From positions 160,001-224,000 of the IMG/VR virus record IMGVR_UViG_3300028886_000035: a DNA stretch of 64,000 bases. One strand, written 5' to 3'. Within the stretch, counting starts at the first letter, position 1; each line of letters begins with the position of its first letter. The stretch comes from a virus. Taxonomy: Duplodnaviria; Caudoviricetes. Positions 55,451 through 64,000 of this stretch are shown in pieces. A program made the position numbers and the translations under genes. Under the pieces are notes generated by a model, which did not search any database, had not been told where the DNA came from, and saw only the letters and a program-made list of their open reading frames with translations.

Positions 55451-55939
55451 TTATAATTTCATTCTATGCCATTCGTTATCCCAATATTCTTCTTCTTCTT
55501 TTGCTTCCTTCTTTAGAAGCCAACATTGATAATTATGTTCGCGAACATAATTATCAATATCAGGTAAGCCTGAAGCACCTGCATCATAAACCAATTCTTG
55601 AATATTATCATAAGTATTTGGTTTATCACCCATAGCAACAGATAATAATACAATATTATCCATCATTTCACCAGACACATCATCTATATCGTCATTTGTA
55701 TATTTAGGTAAAATTTCACACAAACATTCATAGAAATTATCGCAATCATCTAATGTTGATAATATTTTTTCTTCGACTTGATAATCTGATATTTCTTCAT
55801 ATGCTCTATCTTTATCAATCAATTCCGTAGCAACTTCACTAGCTATTTCAACGTCCTTTTCTGCTGCTTCGCATAGTTTTAGCACATCTTCCCTAGAAAA
55901 TACAATTGGTTTTTCTTCTTCTGCAATTAATCTTTTCAT
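55451..55939 (-). CDS. acidic protein with N-terminal MKRLIA
   Basis: 162 aa, AAGGAG RBS. Confidence 0.8.
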   Translation of the reverse strand: MKRLIAEEEKPIVFSREDVLKLCEAAEKDVEIASEVATELIDKDRAYEEISDYQVEEKILSTLDDCDNFYECLCEILPKYTNDDIDDVSGEMMDNIVLLSVAMGDKPNTYDNIQELVYDAGASGLPDIDNYVREHNYQCWLLKKEAKEEEEYWDNEWHRMKL

Positions 55940-55954
55940 GTAAACTCTCCTTTA

Positions 55955-56251
55955 TTATATTTTTTTAAAATCAAAGCATTTTAATATTTCTTGACTGGTA
56001 TTATTTTGTAATGCATATGCAAATTTACTAGCTATTTGTTCCATTTGCATTTTCGTATCACAAATTTTTATATATGTTTCATTTAATTGTGATTGTATAA
56101 ATATAATTTTATTATAATGTCTATCATGACCAAATCCTAAAAAAAATTCTTCTCCTAATTGGCTTACTGCATTAATATATTTACCGTCAAATAATCCCAT
56201 AATAGACGAACGAGACATATCTAAATCTTGCCATTTTACTTGCAATTTCAT
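55955..56251 (-). CDS. hypothetical protein
   Basis: 98 aa, GAGGT RBS. Confidence 0.75.
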   Translation of the reverse strand: MKLQVKWQDLDMSRSSIMGLFDGKYINAVSQLGEEFFLGFGHDRHYNKIIFIQSQLNETYIKICDTKMQMEQIASKFAYALQNNTSQEILKCFDFKKI

Positions 56252-56401
56252 ATACTGTTACCTCTTGAAAATTATATTTACCTATACAAAAAATAACTTT
56301 TAGTTTGAAATATATAATTTTTAATCATACATTTTCTATTTATTATATAAATATAATAGGATAAAAAACTAGCTAATAATTAGCTAGTTTTTTTAAATTT
56401 A

Positions 56402-57461
56402 TTAAAAATGCTTAACACGTTCTTCAACTTCATGACGTTTAGCATTATTCCATGTGGTTAAATCTCCTGTAAGATACATCTTACTTTCATAAAATGGACT
56501 ATTTCTTACCTCTGTGGGTCGTTGTGTTTAGTCTCTGCATTTAGATAAATCACATCATATTCATAAATATGTTTTCTATGTGACTTCAATTTTCCTCTCA
56601 TATGTTCAAATGATTTATTATATTCATTACTCAAAAACCTTGCACATTCAGACATTGATTCAAACTTTTGTTTAAAATTTTCTTTCATTAATATGATAGG
56701 TTTCATTCTTATTTTGCGTGCATTACTCCAATTAGTTAATATTACATTAATCATTTTTTCTGTTAATGCACGATTTTTCATTTGTACACTATGAGTCACA
56801 TATCTTAGATTTGTATATTTATTATTATGCGTGTTTCTGTCAATATGGTCTATTTCATAACCTTCAGGTCTATCGCCAAGCCAACATTCTGCAACAATTC
56901 TATGCATTGGTACTCGATGCACTTTACCTTTTAAATTAACAAAAGCTACATAATAACCATTTTTTGAATGATGATAATCTAATATAATTTTAATATGTTT
57001 CTTGGATTTTACATTTCTCAAAATTGTTCCATCATCATTCACTTCATATAAAAATTGTAATGATTTAATTTTTCTAAACTCACGATTAATATGATTACTC
57101 ATATCTCCCTTGATACCTCCATAATCATTTTTTTATTTCTGAACCTTATTAGGTATCCAATTATGGAAACTGTACTATTCAAAATACATTTACAACAGTT
57201 GATGGGCTTTTCTTACAGGGAATAACCCGTGATACGTCTAATTCTCTCAATTTTTGGTTTATCCTGCACATATTTAATATCAATATCTGCATTCTTTTCA
57301 TCTACTTTAGTAATAGTTACTTTTTCAATTACACCATCTTTTTCTTCTTTTTTTTCTTCTGCATAATTCAAAAAGTTTTCTGCGAACTTTTTATCAATAA
57401 CTGCTTCATCTTCAAATCCATTAAATACAATTGTCTTGTTATCAATCTCAAATTCTTTCAT
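56402..57461 (-). CDS. nrdD: NrdD glycyl-radical domain mini-protein, 103 aa after splicing; exons 57461-57225 and 56476-56402
   Basis: joined exons read IERIRRITG|YLTGDLTTWNNAKRHEVEERVKHF, the canonical NrdD C-terminus; own AAGGTGA RBS. Confidence 0.9.
56477..57224 (-). mobile_element. group I intron 5 (748 nt) with HNH ORF
   Basis: exon ends in U with P1 GGGU/GCCC; terminal G; R-like GCAGAGACUA and S-like AAGAAAUAGUCC. Confidence 0.88.
56506..57102 (-). CDS. intron-encoded HNH homing endonuclease
   Basis: HRIVA..W, IDHIDRN..NN...NL. Confidence 0.9.
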   Translation of the reverse strand: MSNHINREFRKIKSLQFLYEVNDDGTILRNVKSKKHIKIILDYHHSKNGYYVAFVNLKGKVHRVPMHRIVAECWLGDRPEGYEIDHIDRNTHNNKYTNLRYVTHSVQMKNRALTEKMINVILTNWSNARKIRMKPIILMKENFKQKFESMSECARFLSNEYNKSFEHMRGKLKSHRKHIYEYDVIYLNAETKHNDPQR

Positions 57462-57476
57462 ATCATATCACCTTTT

Positions 57477-57857
57477 TTATGAATTTAAAGTTTTCTTTAA
57501 AGTATTGCTAATTTTTTCTTTAATTTCAGGAGAGGGGTCATTTGCTTTTTTCACATTAAGCAAATCATAATCTTTTTCATACATTTCCGTATATAATTTC
57601 TCTAATTTATCTGCTTCATCTTGTGTACTGCAATCTACAATTGGAAGTATATCTAAATCATCAAAATCATATTTACTAATTTGTCTATCAGGATATGTAT
57701 AGTCCCCTGAATGATGTTGAATTAGTCTACGATGTAATGTATTCGTAGTTTGTCCAATATAAATTACATTATTTGTATTCTTATCTACAATTTTATAGAT
57801 ACAGAATTTTTTCTTATATTCTTTTTCCATATATAATTTTCCTTTTTTACGTCTCAT
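57477..57857 (-). CDS. free-standing GIY-YIG endonuclease (short)
   Basis: CIYKI...YIGQT...R...H, conserved E and N; short NUMOD3-like tail. Confidence 0.85.
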   Translation of the reverse strand: MRRKKGKLYMEKEYKKKFCIYKIVDKNTNNVIYIGQTTNTLHRRLIQHHSGDYTYPDRQISKYDFDDLDILPIVDCSTQDEADKLEKLYTEMYEKDYDLLNVKKANDPSPEIKEKISNTLKKTLNS

Positions 57858-57881
57858 ATTTCTCGTCTCTGTTTTTAAAAT

Positions 57882-57977
57882 TTATTTATCCATATTTTTA
57901 ATTACATATAATGAAAACATTATATTAACTAATCCAAAGATAAATGCAATCAAACAATATATAAATGTAACATTCAT
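57882..57977 (-). CDS. 31-aa membrane peptide MNVTFIYCLIAFIFGLVNIMFSLYVIKNMDK
   Basis: AGGTGA RBS, one hydrophobic helix. Confidence 0.5.
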   Translation of the reverse strand: MNVTFIYCLIAFIFGLVNIMFSLYVIKNMDK

Positions 57978-58020
57978 AATTACATCACCTATTAATTAAA
58001 TAGACTTCCGTAATTTTAAT

Positions 58021-61000
58021 TTACTTATCTGTACAACCACAACCAATATCGCGAATATTTACGTGAATATCTGTATCTTCACGAATTTCTTTATATCCGC
58101 AAATTGGGCAAGTGTCTCCATCAATAACTAATGTATTACCACATGAAGGACATCTGTCTACGGGGTGGTTGACTGCAAAGTAATTCATATTCTTATCGTG
58201 CATATATCTAATAACAGTTTCAAAAGCATCAAGATTTTTTAATGGGTCTCCATCCATTTCCAAATAGCTAATTACACCCGCATTACACAACTCATGATAT
58301 GGAGCTTCAATCTCAATTTTCTTTGCAGCTGAAATAGGATAGTAAACTGGAATATGCATACTGTTCGTAAAATATTCTCTATCCGTTACACCTTTAATAA
58401 CTCCATATTTCTTTCTTGTATCGCGAAGGAACGCACCAGCAGTTGATTCTGCCGGTGTCGCAAATAAACTAAAGTTTAAATGCGTTTCTTTCGCGTACTT
58501 ATCTGTCATTTCACGCATATGTTTAATAATTTCATATCCTAACTTACGCGCTTCTTCTGTTTCTCCATGATGTGAACCAATCAATGCTACAAGTGCTTCT
58601 GCCAATCCACAGAAACCAATTGAAATAGATGCTTGTTTTAATACAGGAGCAATTTCATCTGTCCATTTCAATTGTTCACTTGTATACCAAAGATGTTGTC
58701 CCATCAAGAATGGGAAATTATATACATGACGATGACCAATGCGTTCAAATCTCCAAAGAAGATTTTCTTTGCAAAGTTTCATGTATTTATCCAAAAGTTT
58801 ATAGAACTTTTTAATATCATGGTTTGCATCCAATGCCAACATAGGAAGATTAATGGTATCGAATGCAAAATTACCTCTTGATGAAGTAATTGGTTCGCCA
58901 TTCAAATTCATTTGAGTTTTGGTTCTACAGCCCCAGCGTAGCATTTTCTATATCACTATAGGTTCAGACTATATCACATACCTATAATTATAGGCATCTT
59001 TTCTTTTCCACTAACTCAAAAAGTGTACTCTACTTCCGTAGATAGTCGTTTAGCTTTTATTATTAATAAATGTGTTTAATTGTTTTTCTATATGTAGAAA
59101 CATAAAATTTTTTATTTTTGTAAATAAAATATCCACGTTTTATGATTCCATCTACAGATAAATATGATTTATCATAATAATCTGCAAATTGTTTTCTTTC
59201 ATCAAACTCTCTGATAACATTATTTCTATCTTTATCAGAATATATAATTATTGGACACCATGTTGTTTTATAATGATTTTTATGTACTTTTCTAAGACCA
59301 TTCTTAAATGCATGTTTATCATTTTCAGAACGAGTACACCATTCTAAATTGTCATATCTACAATTTAATTTATTTCCATCAATATGATTAACAACAAGTG
59401 TACTATAATTTATTGGTGGATTACAAAAATAATATGCAACTAATCTATGTATAAAAAATCTTTTATGTGGATTAGATAAACAAACACGTCTATATCCACA
59501 ATTATTTTTGTCTCCGATTAATAATCTTCCATCTTTATTTTTAACTTGTCCAAAATTACTAATTAAATATCTTCCATTATAACCTTTAATTTCTTTCCAT
59601 AGTTCTTGCATATTTCACCATTTATAAATAAATTTAGCACTAGATTACCTTAAAAATTTAAGGTTTCCTTGTTTAGAAAAGTTCTTCGATATACATTTCT
59701 GTATAAAGCCACAGGTTTGTTTATGGTTGCAATCTCAGTTCTATAATCATTTGGATTATAATATTGCATATTGTAAGGTGCGTCTTGATTTTCAAAATTC
59801 GCTTAAATAAATTATATTTCTATAATTCGCAGACTATCTCTTTACATCATATTGATGTATATTGCGCTTCCGCATAATTTTATGCGTACTAGGATTTCTC
59901 CTATAGTCGTTACACTTTATTTATTATTTATAATAAATTTTAGCACGGTATTGCCACTATCTATTAAAAATAGATTTAGGTTCTCTTACGAAGTTGCTTA
60001 AAACTTCTACCGTTTTCACAATATGTTTCTTACATTACTGTAAGCCCCAATGTTGTTTAGGGAACAGACGCTTTGCACTTACACGCATAGCTAATTTAAA
60101 TAAATCGTAATTCGGGTCACCAGGGTCATAACTAATACCCTTTTTAAGTCTAAATATAGTTATCATTTATACCGTTACTTTCGTAATATTTTAACCATTT
60201 CTTAAAGAAATGCGGATTAGACTATCTCTTTACATCATTATGATGTATATTGCACTTCCATATTTTAATAATATGTACTCCGTTCTCACGGATAGTCGTT
60301 ACATTTTAATTATTAATGCTAAAGAAATTCCAACCATGATAAGGTTTAAACAGCTTTTTATCCAATCGCAATTTAACACTACCTGGACTGAAATTATATA
60401 TTTTACAAAAATGTACAATTCCATGAATTATCATTAAATCATTATCTGGTGAAATAGCAATAAAATGTTTTGAATATTGTTCTGTGTTTCTATATTTAAT
60501 ATTTATTTCATTAGATATAAACATACAAGTATCTAAAGAATAAACTTTTTGTGATGGTAATAATCCTTTTTGCTTTATGTCTTTATCCAAACATAAAATT
60601 CCATCATTGAATTCTTTTTCATTATATCCATCAATTTTGGATAAATCTTCTAAAAAATATTCAAAACAATGCCATCTATTACAAACAGTAACACCTAATC
60701 CACCATATGAAGAAAAGTCTTTTTTGTTATGAGAATTATAACATCTACTTAACATATTTCTCCATAATGTGCAAGCGCGTTTATTCATTTTTGATGTTGC
60801 ATTTCCCATATATCCAATCCCATATAATGTTGGATAGAATAAATCTTTAATACAACCTTGATTCAATGCTTGCTTCAAAACAGTTCGTTTGCTATGTGTT
60901 CTTAGAAATTCAATTTCATAATAATGATTACCATTTTTTATATAATCATAATTAATTTTATATTCTAATCCTGTATTCGTTTTAAATATTTTATTCATTT

Positions 61001-63767
61001 TCTCACCTCCATTATATTTTATTTTAGCATTAATAAGTCTTAACACGGTATTACCACTATCCATTTAGGATTTAGGTTCTCTTACGAAGTCGATTAAAAC
61101 TTCTACCGTTTTCACAATATGTTTCTTACTGATTAAAGTAAGCCCCATTTATCTAGGGAAGATGCTCGTCTCGCCATGTCCTAATCCTGCTTCTTGTGCA
61201 AGCAGTAAATGCTTCATAGCTAAACGTCCTTCTTCAGACGTATCTAACCCAAAATTTAAGGAACTAAATGGCACTTGAGAGCCAGCTCTCGAATTATGAA
61301 CAAAAATACAATTAGATGTTAAGAAAGTCTCATTGTCTGCAACAGACATATCATAAACATATTCTTCTTCACTATTACTTTCCGTTACTTTTTCAATAAA
61401 TAATGGATATATATGTGAAGCAGGAATGAATTTATTATCATCAATTGCTTTTGTGTCAATAATTTCTTTTTTTACACGATTAAATTTTGGTTTCCTACCA
61501 TCAATATTACGACTTAATAAATTCTTCAAAAAATCAAAATCATAATAAATATATTCTGCTCGTACATTATTTTGATTTAAATCTTTCAAATTCAAACGAT
61601 TTGCAGTATTAGAATTAAAACTAATATCATATCCATTATATGTTCCATAAGACGTTTTCCTGTTATATGTATTGTGAATATGAGACATTTCATTCATTGA
61701 CAAAATCATTAATTGAATTTGAGAACGTAACGTTTCTGAAACAGTTGTAGCCCCAATATATGTTGGTTTTATACTACCATCACATTTAAAATACCCTTCC
61801 AAAAATGCAGATTGAACTTCTTTTGTTCCAAACATAATTTGCATTGGAATTTTTTTCTCATGTGCATTTCTACCGAAATAATATTTAAATGCGTCCGACC
61901 AAACTTTACCAACATTAAATCTTATATCCTTTGGTTTACCATTAGGCATAGAATATTTATTATATGTTACTTTTTCATTATAGCATTCTTTCATTAATGA
62001 TAACAATTCTTGTTCTTTAGTTTCATCACAAGTGGTAAAGCATAATTGACTATCACCAACAATAGAACCTTCTGCAACATAATACCCTGCCAATTTACCA
62101 AAAGAAGGATTTACTACAATATGATTTTCTGTATAATTTTGTTTTGTACGTGAATGGAATTTATCTAAACTAATATCATTTTTCACATTAAAAACAAAAT
62201 TTCTTGGCATTAATACATTTGGTACACTTTCAGGATAATCTTCAGCAATTTTACCTGCGTTATTAAGATACATTACTTTATGATTGTCTGTTGTCGTAAC
62301 TGATGCTCCTGATGTTGTATGAATTGTAATCAATCTACGATGATTATTTTTTCTTTCAATATCAGTAATATCTTTTAATTCTGCTACACCTGTATTTTGA
62401 TTTAATGAAATAGCCTGATAACGACCTTTTTCATAAATCTCATGTAGTTTACCAATTTGCATTACTTTTAATTCTTCTTCTTGTTTATCATAAACAAAAA
62501 TTGTTGAAGAATATGGTAAACAATGCATCGAATTTAGATTGAAAATAACGCTTTCCATAGCTTGATGTGTTTCTTCTTCTACACGCTTACAAGCCAGCTT
62601 ATAAGCATTTTTAAATAGCTTATTTAATTCTTTATCATCTGTTAGTTTATCAATGTTTTTATCATTTTTATACGTTGGATATTCGTTCTGTTTTTGTTTC
62701 AAAATCTCGTCTACAGTATCTTCTGATACATCAGAAACCATAGCAAGGTTTTTAGCACATTCCTCAAATTCTTTCTTAAAAGAACGTCTTACACCTTCTG
62801 CCATAGCTCTATCAAAGTCCTGAATTGATTGTCCACCAAACATGTTATTCTGCGAAGATTGCAACACGATGCAAGCTAAACTTGCAGCAGAACGAATACT
62901 TTGCGGTTCTCTAATATATGAGCTACCAATTTTAAAACCGTCTTTAAATGTCTTTTGTAAATCCACCTGGAGGCAGTTGAATGTTAGCTCTGAAAAATCC
63001 TTGTCCTCTCACAGTAGACAGTTGTCTATTGCAGATTGACTATATCATCTAAGATAGGCACTTCCACATATTTTTAACATATATGTACTCCATAAATGGA
63101 TAGTCGATTAACTTAATTTACAAAAAATGTAAATGTTAGCACAGGATTCTACTTATATAAAGTCATTCCCTGTTAGCACAATTTCTAAATGTCATTTCCT
63201 ACATTTCCTATACGTAAATTGTACACCTGATATTTTATCAGTTCACCTATTTTTTTATCCACAATAAGATTCATGGATATGAATATATCCTGCTCTATGA
63301 GCATCAATATATCTCTTCGGAATAATGTAATTATCATTAAAGAAATTACTTACTGTTGTCCCATAAATTAACATTGAACCCATTGGTTCATCTGATTGAA
63401 TATTAGCATTACTACGTTTGTAATCTGATTCTTCACCAGATTGAAATGTAATATCCATCATTTTTTTCATAAGTTCTTCATGTGTATCACGAATTTTTGC
63501 GTGTTCCGAACGATAAATAATATACGATTTAGCAGTATGTTCCCAATTTGACTTCATGAGAACATTTTCCACTTCGTCTTGAATACTTTCTACTGAAGGT
63601 GCTTTTACATCTTCAAATTTTTCTTCAATCTGACTTACCATCCCCCAAATAATCGAATTATTCATTCTCTTATCTTTGGAATCATTGTTAGCTTTCTTAA
63701 TCGCATTAAATATCTTATGCGAATCGTAGTCAACAACTTTTCCATTACGTTTTCTTACTTTTTGCAA
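58021..63767 (-). CDS. nrdD: anaerobic (class III) ribonucleotide reductase, large part; exons 63767-63273, 63005-61155, 60163-60059, 59799-59723, 58933-58021; ~736 aa after intron and intein removal
   Basis: ATP cone; junctions restore IHIH|DKDF..NC, IFP|ITIF, RLFP|NF, TM|GCRT; ATPAE, YFTNS, CPSC..CPIC; probable TTG start after AGGAG; no RxxGY. Confidence 0.93.
58934..59722 (-). mobile_element. group I intron 4 (789 nt) splitting the Met codon of MGCR
   Basis: AT|G junction, P1 CCAU/GUGG, R AACGACUAUC, S GAUAUAGUC, terminal G. Confidence 0.9.
59063..59611 (-). CDS. intron-encoded NUMOD4-HNH homing endonuclease
   Basis: ELWKEI.GY...Y.ISN.G.V; HRLVA..F; VNHIDGNK.N....NLEW. Confidence 0.92.
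   Translation of the reverse strand: MQELWKEIKGYNGRYLISNFGQVKNKDGRLLIGDKNNCGYRRVCLSNPHKRFFIHRLVAYYFCNPPINYSTLVVNHIDGNKLNCRYDNLEWCTRSENDKHAFKNGLRKVHKNHYKTTWCPIIIYSDKDRNNVIREFDERKQFADYYDKSYLSVDGIIKRGYFIYKNKKFYVSTYRKTIKHIY
59800..60058 (-). mobile_element. group I intron 3 (259 nt, no ORF), sister of intron 2
   Basis: follows TTCCCT; R AACGACUAU, S AAGAGAUAGUC; terminal G. Confidence 0.9.
60164..61154 (-). mobile_element. group I intron 2 (991 nt) with endonuclease ORF
   Basis: follows TTCCCT; P1 with GGGG; R/S motifs; terminal G. Confidence 0.9.
60306..60998 (-). CDS. intron-encoded HNH-related endonuclease
   Basis: W.NML.RCY, YGG.GV.VC.RW..F..F..D, LDKD, YS..TC; GGAGGTGA RBS before ATG 60998. 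Confidence 0.8.
   Translation of the reverse strand: MNKIFKTNTGLEYKINYDYIKNGNHYYEIEFLRTHSKRTVLKQALNQGCIKDLFYPTLYGIGYMGNATSKMNKRACTLWRNMLSRCYNSHNKKDFSSYGGLGVTVCNRWHCFEYFLEDLSKIDGYNEKEFNDGILCLDKDIKQKGLLPSQKVYSLDTCMFISNEINIKYRNTEQYSKHFIAISPDNDLMIIHGIVHFCKIYNFSPGSVKLRLDKKLFKPYHGWNFFSINN
61293..62522 (-). mobile_element. intein (410 aa) with LAGLIDADG endonuclease in NrdD
   Basis: H|CLP...TTDNH (block B)...LAGYYVAEG...FLEGYFKCDG...VYDMSV...VHN|S. Confidence 0.93.
63006..63272 (-). mobile_element. group I intron 1 (267 nt, no ORF)
   Basis: P1 AUCCAU/GUGGAU; R AUCGACUAUCC; S AUGAUAUAGUC; terminal G; removal restores IHIHD. Confidence 0.9.
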
Positions 63768-64000
63768 GTGATTCACTCCTTTTGACTTGATAGAAATATT
63801 ATATCATCATTACACAATTTATTGTAGTGATTTTACATTAAAAATTCAACTTTATTTTGCGAAATGTTTCATTTTCAATAAAAAAATAAGCTAAAATTTC
63901 ATAAAAATTTCAACTTTTATATTCTTAGAAACACATGAATAATGTTTGTTTGTGATTCAATCACTAAATTTTTTATATATATTAAACGATTATGTTTAAC

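Follow-up and report, generated by a model that had tools for sequence, protein, structure and literature searches.

Can the radical glycine of a class III ribonucleotide reductase (RNR) reside on a polypeptide of its own? This question is raised by the nrdD locus of a virus of the Caudoviricetes, of which we analyzed a 64,000-nucleotide (nt) stretch, positions 160,001 to 224,000 of IMG/VR virus record IMGVR_UViG_3300028886_000035 (hereafter the window); the source record is 281 kb long and rated 98% complete. To our knowledge, all glycyl-radical enzymes studied so far carry the radical glycine on the catalytic chain, and their radical domain must swing out of the barrel to the activase and then return, a step that is hard to study. 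The original prediction, made from the sequence alone, held that in this phage the glycyl-radical domain is encoded apart from the catalytic body, beyond a GIY-YIG endonuclease gene that had fractured nrdD. We found that the RxxGY motif is indeed missing from the body and that RRITGY is carried by a small gene, a layout that is likely to represent an obligate two-chain class III RNR made of a body and a separate radical subunit, whose assembly and activity we infer from sequence. The role given to the endonuclease did not hold.

The nrdD body ends shortly after its zinc site

Profile searches of the phage genome found one nrdD locus, one small radical-subunit gene and an intact nrdG. The last exon of the nrdD body (58021..58933, stop codon included; all nrdD-region features discussed here are on the minus strand) lies in an open reading frame (ORF) spanning 58944-58021 and encodes the finger loop (MGCRT), the second barrel half, the CPSC...CPIC zinc site and a tail. 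Its product matched Pfam NRDD over model positions 263-531 of 562 (E 2.4e-87) and residues 418-707 of P. copri NrdD (PDB 8p23; E 2e-69), and CPSC...CPIC aligned with the zinc cysteines of the C-terminal four-Cys site in 8p23 and 1h78. The body frame terminates in ...CPSCGNTLVIDGDTCPICGYKEIREDTDIHVNIRDIGCGCTDK at 58021, 22 residues past the zinc site, and the end of the body reads CPSC..CPICGYKEIREDTDIHVNIRDIGCGCTDK before the stop. The radical motif RxxGY was not found on the body chain by either ORF reading or Pfam scan. The frame thus ends as the original prediction had described it, just past CPSC..CPIC with a novel tail and no RxxGY, the NRDD match running out at position 531 of 562.

Upstream of this exon, the body is distributed over an ATP-cone exon ORF (63776-63255), a long ORF with NRDD segments around a LAGLIDADG intein (62966-61149) and some short exons, and the region also holds an endonuclease ORF (61064-60306) and a NUMOD4/HNH endonuclease ORF (59611-59063). 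The five body pieces together span positions 2-531 of the PF13597 (NRDD) barrel model, and every exon frame is open. The GCRT of the body aligned with the MGC of P. copri NrdD (radical Cys416) and with Cys290 of the T4 enzyme, and the Met that precedes it rests on a splice junction, at which ...GCA ACC AT (59726) would be joined to G GGC TGT (58933) to give EIATMGCRT. We infer the exon start at 58933 because the junction AT/G GGC TGT restores ATMGCRT, which is conserved in the Anaerovibrio and P. copri enzymes; the same start coordinate had been proposed before. On this alignment the finger loop is of the Met-Gly-Cys type, as in the formate-using P. copri enzyme.

The phage nrdG lies outside the window, at genome position 275312-275749 (TIGR02491, 167.8 bits against a cut-off of 126.1). 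Besides nrdG, the genome holds eight more radical-SAM (Fer4_12) matches, in ORFs of 107-374 amino acids (aa) at 38-96 kb (G000:C1, also outside the window), an unusual count for a phage. Megablast of the locus against deposited phages returned a sole match of 58 nt, to Clostridioides phages.

The radical loop lies on a small gene interrupted by an HNH-carrying insert

The small gene starts with an ATG at 57461, 6 nt downstream of a ribosome-binding site (AAGGTGA, 57468..57474), and its relatives carry AGAGGT or AAGGGGTGA at the matching place. Exon 1 (57225..57461, codons 1-79) encodes a leader of about 70 residues and IERIRRITG up to the radical Gly79, as delimited by homologues, alignments and positions 2-72 of the genome profile; exon 2 (56402..56476), placed by alignment and by profile positions 72-95, encodes codons 80-103 (YLTGDLTTWNNAKRHEVEERVKHF) and the stop. 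The profile search of the whole phage genome recovered the small protein once, as exactly these two pieces. Between the codons for Gly79 and Tyr80 lies an intervening sequence of 748 nt (56477..57224), which contains an ORF for a 198-aa HNH homing endonuclease (56506..57102; Pfam HNH_3, E 5.6e-13; PHROG 59, HNH endonuclease, E 1e-21). The ORF read from 57461 has 82 codons and stops at 57213, two codons past RRITGY, and the rest of the coding sequence lies behind the 748 nt, so a 103-aa product needs removal of the insert. The 103-aa gene of the original prediction therefore stands as a spliced product but not as one open frame, since the insert interrupts it after the Gly codon. The ribosome-binding site and the acidic leader (19 D/E versus 13 K/R) were where it had placed them, as were the 31-aa peptide and the GIY-YIG ORF upstream.

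DNA alignment with an uninterrupted orthologue (L001:8001-8312, protein P0004, 103 aa, 75% identical) placed the insert between GGT (Gly79) and TAT (Tyr80). The 5' exon then ends in U (T in DNA) and the insert ends in G, in keeping with the exon-U/terminal-G rule, and the insert is most likely a group I intron that would be removed at the RNA level. Rfam returned nothing at gathering thresholds in the whole window and nothing at E ≤ 1 in 55800-64000, although ORF-bearing phage introns are often missed. Folding of the 748-nt insert with its ORF deleted gave no recognisable core, and a search with the insert ends against the rest of the locus revealed no shared core. In five one-chain relatives (P0413, P0416, P0420, P0437 and P0438), the called ORF stops or derails right after RRITG, which suggests that other genomes, too, have inserts between these Gly and Tyr codons.

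The small protein matched only NrdD-family models (NCBIfam and PHROGs, E up to 1e-5), the NCBIfam NrdD models only over their last 33-37 positions, and its orthologues have a precomputed weak PF13597 match. A Pfam scan of the 82-aa exon-1 ORF found no family, PF01228 (the pyruvate formate-lyase-type glycyl-radical domain) included, and no model dedicated to the small protein was found in Pfam, NCBIfam or PHROG. Right after the stop codon, a palindromic hairpin with a 14-pair stem and a T run (56363..56393, both strands) has the look of an intrinsic terminator for transcripts from either strand.

The gap between the two genes is an old border entered by endonucleases

In the window, 560 nt separate the body from the small gene. 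This gap holds a free-standing GIY-YIG homing-endonuclease gene with the catalytic domain only (57477..57857; Pfam GIY-YIG, E 4.4e-10; PHROG 314, 'homing endonuclease', E 2e-13), whose true start is probably Met10 at 57830, giving 117 aa, and whose stop lies 15 nt from the small-gene ATG. It is 93% identical to the 117-aa gene in the same gap of L001 and L003; a 117-aa GIY-YIG gene occupies the gap in L001-L004, and three of these loci (L001, L002 and L004) have an additional ORF of 350-374 aa there. At the same spot, L010-L012 have a 185-aa GIY-YIG/NUMOD gene that is barely related (28% identity). In L005-L007 (contigs of 44-354 kb) and L008-L009, by comparison, the body stop is 14-16 nt from the small-gene ATG, with a ribosome-binding site between and no endonuclease, and the body genes end in a tail similar to that of the window.

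Given these layouts in L001-L012, with different endonucleases or none, the gap is best read as an old gene border entered more than once by endonuclease genes, that is, as a hot spot for their insertion. The sequence comparison indicated that the GIY-YIG gene is a mere passenger, which inserted as a free-standing unit at a time when the two genes were already separate. The proposal that it caused the fracture, in the manner of nrdA/mobE in phage Aeh1, did not survive the loci L005-L009 and those of the Selenomonadaceae, which are split without any endonuclease; a survey of split nrdD with and without the GIY-YIG gene found the split to be common without it, the outcome that the original prediction had named beforehand as speaking against its account.

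Frameshifting or ribosome hopping over the gap was considered and rejected, as 560 nt lie between the genes in the window and the frame offset varies by lineage: body and small genes are in different frames, offset by 2 in one lineage and by 1 in the other (L005-L009). A scan of the minus strand from the body to the small gene revealed nothing resembling a terminator. The gap also contains a hydrophobic ORF of 31 codons (MNVTFIYCLIAFIFGLVNIMFSLYVIKNMDK, 57882..57977, from the ORF list), which had no PHROG match. It is similar to a 31-codon ORF in L001, L002 and L004 (MDATFIYCLVMFIFGLVNIMFSLYVIKDIDK; L001:7485-7580) and is missing from L003; it may encode a small membrane peptide moving with a mobile cassette. 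Among these relatives, the 31-codon ORF is kept where the gap also holds the additional ORF of 350-374 aa.

The tail and the leader are conserved and predicted to dock

Two segments distinguish the split form, the body tail EIREDTDIHVNIRDIGCGCTDK (58024..58089, ORF residues 286-307), which has a beta-strand at 288-295 and a Cys-x-Cys end and is absent from one-chain NrdD, and the leader of the small protein. A tail extending 14-27 residues (median 18) past the last CPxC was seen in 91 of the 120 homologues closest to the last body exon. Both segments are kept in every lineage in which both genes were compared, namely phage loci L001-L012 and L113 and four Selenomonadaceae loci. Between the window and L001, the nonsynonymous and synonymous divergences of the leader (dN 0.178, dS 0.692; dN/dS about 0.26) indicated purifying selection, and AlphaFold2 modelled it as beta-beta-alpha-beta-beta, with a per-residue confidence (pLDDT) of 86-90 for residues 1-50 and lower certainty for the radical loop, as expected without a barrel. 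The leader of about 70 residues is thus a conserved, selected protein domain. A Foldseek search of PDB with the small-protein model gave no match at E ≤ 0.001, and the best of 48,161 chains in VIA-align was the ToxR periplasmic domain (Z 4.4, root-mean-square deviation 3.9 Å over 66 residues), with ribosome hibernation factors next (Z about 3); neither search gave a convincing match to a solved fold, hence the leader is given no fold name.

We modelled the window's last-exon product (the last 307 body residues) with the orthologue P0004. The complex scored 0.68 and the best of three controls 0.00, a mark that 58 of 80 solved complexes attained, as did 2 of 110 mismatched pairs; these counts are only rough because our own alignments were used. 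The runs agreed in at least 83% of contacts, and partner pLDDT was at least 76. The most confident contacts joined body residues 288-295 (REDTDIHV) to small-protein residues 57-66 in antiparallel orientation, with errors of 0.6-1.0 Å, and further contacts involved the zinc-ribbon region and helix 29-40. By this model, tail and leader are predicted to dock on each other, the fourth strand of the leader pairing with the tail. This bears out, at the level of a prediction of binding, the suggestion that the two are docking elements. Fold searches found no solved counterpart of the tail-leader interface, and the rest of the complex may owe its score to memory, reflecting likeness to solved one-chain NrdD.

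The tail ends in CC or CxC (GCGC, CPC, CC or CIC) in 27 of the 91 bodies lacking a glycyl-radical domain, mostly in the window's clade; examples are the window itself (58024-58044), P0376-P0388, P0395, P0432 and P0447. A metal bridge from the tail CxC to leader His37 was dropped because His37 is not kept in bacterial homologues and the Cys pair occurs in only 27 of 91 tails, and a redox-shuttle role for the Cys pair was not supported, the finger loop being of the Met-Gly-Cys (formate) type as in P. copri.

The split is widespread

A profile built from 25 small proteins was run against 1.84 billion cluster representatives and matched 274 clusters (50% identity) at E ≤ 1e-10. Most of the best matches (136 of 150) were 74-158 aa long and spanned the profile almost end to end, including the leader. 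Among the 120 homologues closest to the last body exon, 91 stop after the zinc site, 19 are one-chain forms and five break after RRITG. A quick tree built on the body core mixes split with one-chain forms; it needs seven changes, at least four of them forced by well-supported branches, and places the window body within a supported all-split clade of 11 rows. These comparisons indicated that the split is ancestral to the window's phage clade and present in bacteria too, and that it is old and widespread.

Among the matches listed, no protein fusing an NrdD body to the leader was found. Two candidates for such fused forms, P0266 (845 aa) and P0268 (853 aa), proved to be one-chain NrdDs with a duplicated radical region and without the leader, and are probably assembly artefacts. 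The leader and radical module also stands at the end or in the middle of proteins of 295-742 aa (P0114, P0275, P0176, P0283, P0051 and P0270-P0272), in which the remaining sequence matched nothing in Pfam and does not correspond to an NrdD body. In two jumbo-phage-like contigs with a split nrdD (L006:7328-10251 and L007:6976-12291), Csy1-3 and a Cas3-like protein are encoded just downstream; these would form a phage-borne type I-F-like CRISPR system.

Bacterial genomes carry the same pair of genes

In the Selenomonadaceae, operons with the order body (756-771 aa), small gene (ORFs of about 95-113 aa) and nrdG were found in Anaerovibrio sp. RM50, A. slackiae, Megamonas and one metagenome-assembled genome. 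The Anaerovibrio small protein, 94 aa in RefSeq, is labelled 'anaerobic ribonucleoside-triphosphate reductase' there; proteins of this kind appear as 'hypothetical' in other sources. Anaerovibrio sp. RM50 (G001) has two bodies lacking a glycyl-radical domain (C3:112704-114584 and C3:165113-166978) and one small gene (L125), and no match to PF02867 (class I/II reductase) was found in its draft genome. Provided that the draft misses no such gene, the two-chain enzyme of RM50 must work, because it would be the only de novo source of deoxynucleotides. The second RM50 body (754 aa, ending in ...CPHCKRKEIITGHKVVKRPVFE) stands apart from its genome-mate on the quick tree and groups with glycyl-radical-less bodies of the CPHCHRKE type, mostly metagenome sequences.

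A. slackiae has one body and two small genes, a body-to-small ratio of 1:2 as against 2:1 in RM50. A lone gene of 104 aa for leader and radical loop (L126:1274-1588; A. slackiae, G002:C10) immediately follows genes for a holin-like (171 aa) and an amidase-like (205 aa) protein, with no nrdD body nearby and in a prophage-like setting. On four Selenomonadales contigs (L037, L065, L033 and L044), the small gene is immediately preceded by a gene (about 350-415 aa) other than an nrdD body, and in L037 and L044 nrdG comes next.

A probable obligate two-chain enzyme and its alternatives

In the two-chain enzyme that we consider likely, the body, assembled from several exons and having lost its intein, would carry the ATP-cone, the barrel, the Cys-radical loop and the zinc ribbon, followed by the 22-residue tail. 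The small subunit of 103 residues, made from an RNA out of which the HNH-carrying insert is spliced, would consist of the leader domain and then the radical loop and helix (IERIRRITG, with the radical on its final glycine, and YL...RVKH). By adding a strand to the leader sheet beside the zinc ribbon, the tail would tether the small subunit, which would let the Gly79 loop enter the barrel next to the finger-loop cysteine, and the phage's own NrdG would generate the radical. Body and radical subunit would form an obligate heterodimer, most likely dimerising as other NrdDs do. With no radical domain on the body itself, the small protein would be a regular subunit and not a spare.

Several points weigh against this two-chain reading. 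The phage enzyme is known from DNA alone; to make it, the body would have to lose several introns and an intein, and one insert would have to leave the small gene. Expression of an intact enzyme is assumed, because Rfam gave no group I intron anywhere in the window. The complex was modelled with the last 307 body residues, which hold half of the barrel, and with the 75%-identical P0004 in place of the window's spliced product, and the radical loop was not among its confident contacts. As the Anaerovibrio genome is a draft, an undetected class I/II reductase is no proof of absence. The observations on Jug phages discussed below are, in the available part of that report, not tied by sequence to the loci examined here.

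A different outcome would follow if the GIY-YIG gene sat inside a group I intron, as I-TevII does in the group I intron of T4 nrdD, and splicing restored an ordinary one-chain NrdD. The precedent of T4, the wealth of intervening sequences in the window nrdD and the direct passage of one-chain relatives from CPKCGSHHI to xRIRRITG all point that way. The 14-16 nt between the genes in relatives nevertheless leave no room for an intron, the GIY-YIG stop is only 15 nt from the small-gene ATG, and Rfam found no match around the GIY-YIG ORF. Splicing would moreover discard two conserved segments, tail and leader, on which purifying selection acts, every lineage provides the small gene with an ATG and a ribosome-binding site of its own, and metatranscriptomes of Jug phages show, in the part of the report available, no splicing at the corresponding gap (PMC12880540), so this explanation is close to refuted. 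The chance that the tail and leader are instead split-intein halves that ligate the chains after translation is smaller still. A classical intein does lie upstream in the same gene, and removal of both segments would recreate the one-chain sequence; yet the first residue of the would-be N-intein is Arg or Glu and not Cys, Ser, Thr or Ala, the residue past the leader is Ile and not Cys, Ser or Thr, and the leader end lacks His-Asn. Neither the tail nor the small protein matched an intein or Hint model in Pfam, and the leader is modelled as a domain of four strands and one helix, not a Hint fold. The residues at both would-be junctions and the missing Hint match exclude a split intein.

That the locus is a wreck, an inactive nrdD overrun by mobile elements with relics for small ORF pieces, appears improbable to us. 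One enzyme gene with at least four endonuclease ORFs, an intein and several inserts, an interrupted radical loop and no intron supported by covariance models would fit such decay; on the other side, every exon frame is open, the pieces span the NRDD model from 2 to 531, the small-gene insert is nucleotide-precise and keeps the exon-U/terminal-G rule, the leader is under selection and nrdG is intact. An nrdD with this same layout, laden with introns, undergoes transcription and splicing in Jug phages, according to the available part of that report (PMC12880540). Less probable again is a small protein that serves mainly as a GrcA-like spare for a host one-chain NrdD or an oxygen-cleaved enzyme and is no partner of the phage body. 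GrcA/YfiD and T4 Y06I serve pyruvate formate-lyase in this way (PMC8683613; PMC13450708), a lone small gene adjoins holin and amidase genes in A. slackiae, and the copy numbers of body and small gene are uncoupled in both Anaerovibrio genomes. The phage body, however, has no radical domain, hence needs the small protein for any activity, and is the only nrdD in the genome; tail and leader co-occur in every lineage in which both genes were checked (L001-L012, L113 and the four Selenomonadaceae loci) and are predicted to dock, and a one-chain host enzyme has no such tail.

Within the two-chain reading, the small protein might also be a detachable radical carrier and not a fixed subunit, charged by NrdG off the enzyme, serving several bodies, swapped after oxygen cleavage at the glycine and supplied in extra copies by phages or prophages to tailed host enzymes. 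We regard this as unlikely, if less so than the preceding alternatives; the uncoupled Anaerovibrio copy numbers and the prophage-side copy hint at an exchange of radical subunits and are suggestive only, and exchange of the subunit, or the cheap repair after oxygen cleavage that the original prediction had suggested, would be a conjecture. If the carrier reading were true, class III reductases of this kind would resemble class I, in which the radical resides on a subunit of its own, and subunit release could be how dATP at the ATP-cone turns the enzyme off.

Significance and comparison with known systems

A natural, separate radical protein of 103 residues would be a handle on activation, loop insertion, the cost of oxygen cleavage and the relation of ATP-cone control to domain mobility; in P. 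copri NrdD, a link between ATP-cone control and radical-domain mobility has reportedly been shown recently. The two-chain form also matters for annotation, since the bodies resemble truncated pseudogenes, the small genes are labelled 'hypothetical' or mislabelled as full reductases, and genomes such as that of Anaerovibrio RM50 would otherwise appear to be without a working reductase. For phage biology, an endonuclease gene between the halves of an enzyme need not be the origin of the split. No description of a two-chain NrdD was found in the full-text literature, a coverage outside which most subscription journals fall.

The nearest phage case is the nrdD of the Jug gut jumbo phages (Sci Adv 2026, PMC12880540). 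As far as the available part of that report goes, this nrdD is likewise ridden with introns and endonucleases and its last fragment, of about 91 aa, is not joined to the preceding one by mRNA splicing, but the fragment was filed under gene fragmentation and not read as a separate radical subunit. In phage Aeh1, nrdA is also in two pieces with a free-standing endonuclease gene, mobE, between them and works as two polypeptides; there the endonuclease insertion made the split, whereas the split of the window is found in relatives and bacteria without the endonuclease. NrdJa/NrdJb of Pseudomonas aeruginosa and Thermus phage YS40 resemble the present pair in having two adjacent ORFs, about 12 nt apart, with a C-terminal functional module on the second chain. 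They differ in belonging to class II, with another cofactor, and in that NrdJb provides a zinc finger and a reducing Cys pair and not the radical.

Small radical proteins are themselves known. GrcA/YfiD of E. coli and Y06I (vs.6) of T4, the latter phage-encoded, similarly have about 100-130 residues, a C-terminal glycyl-radical loop and an N-terminus unrelated to the parent enzyme. They are, however, of the pyruvate formate-lyase type (Pfam Gly_radical) and act as reserves for an enzyme already equipped with a radical domain, and GrcA has a disordered N-terminus; the phage small protein has an NrdD-type loop, a leader that is predicted to be folded and a body without a radical domain. Such spare-part proteins are known for formate lyases only, according to a 2026 review (PMC13450708).

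With the one-chain NrdDs of P. copri (8P23) and T4 (1H78/1H79), the split form shares the barrel, the MGC finger loop, the four-Cys zinc ribbon, the RRITGY loop, the RVKH helix end, the ATP-cone and a separate NrdG. In P. copri NrdD, the zinc ribbon reaches xRIRRITG711 within 8 residues, whereas in the phage about 90 residues are added between them, together with a stop and a start codon. Compared with P. copri NrdD, the split form is thus not a simple cut: a 22-residue tail and a leader domain of about 70 residues stand in between, and the radical glycine is on the other chain.

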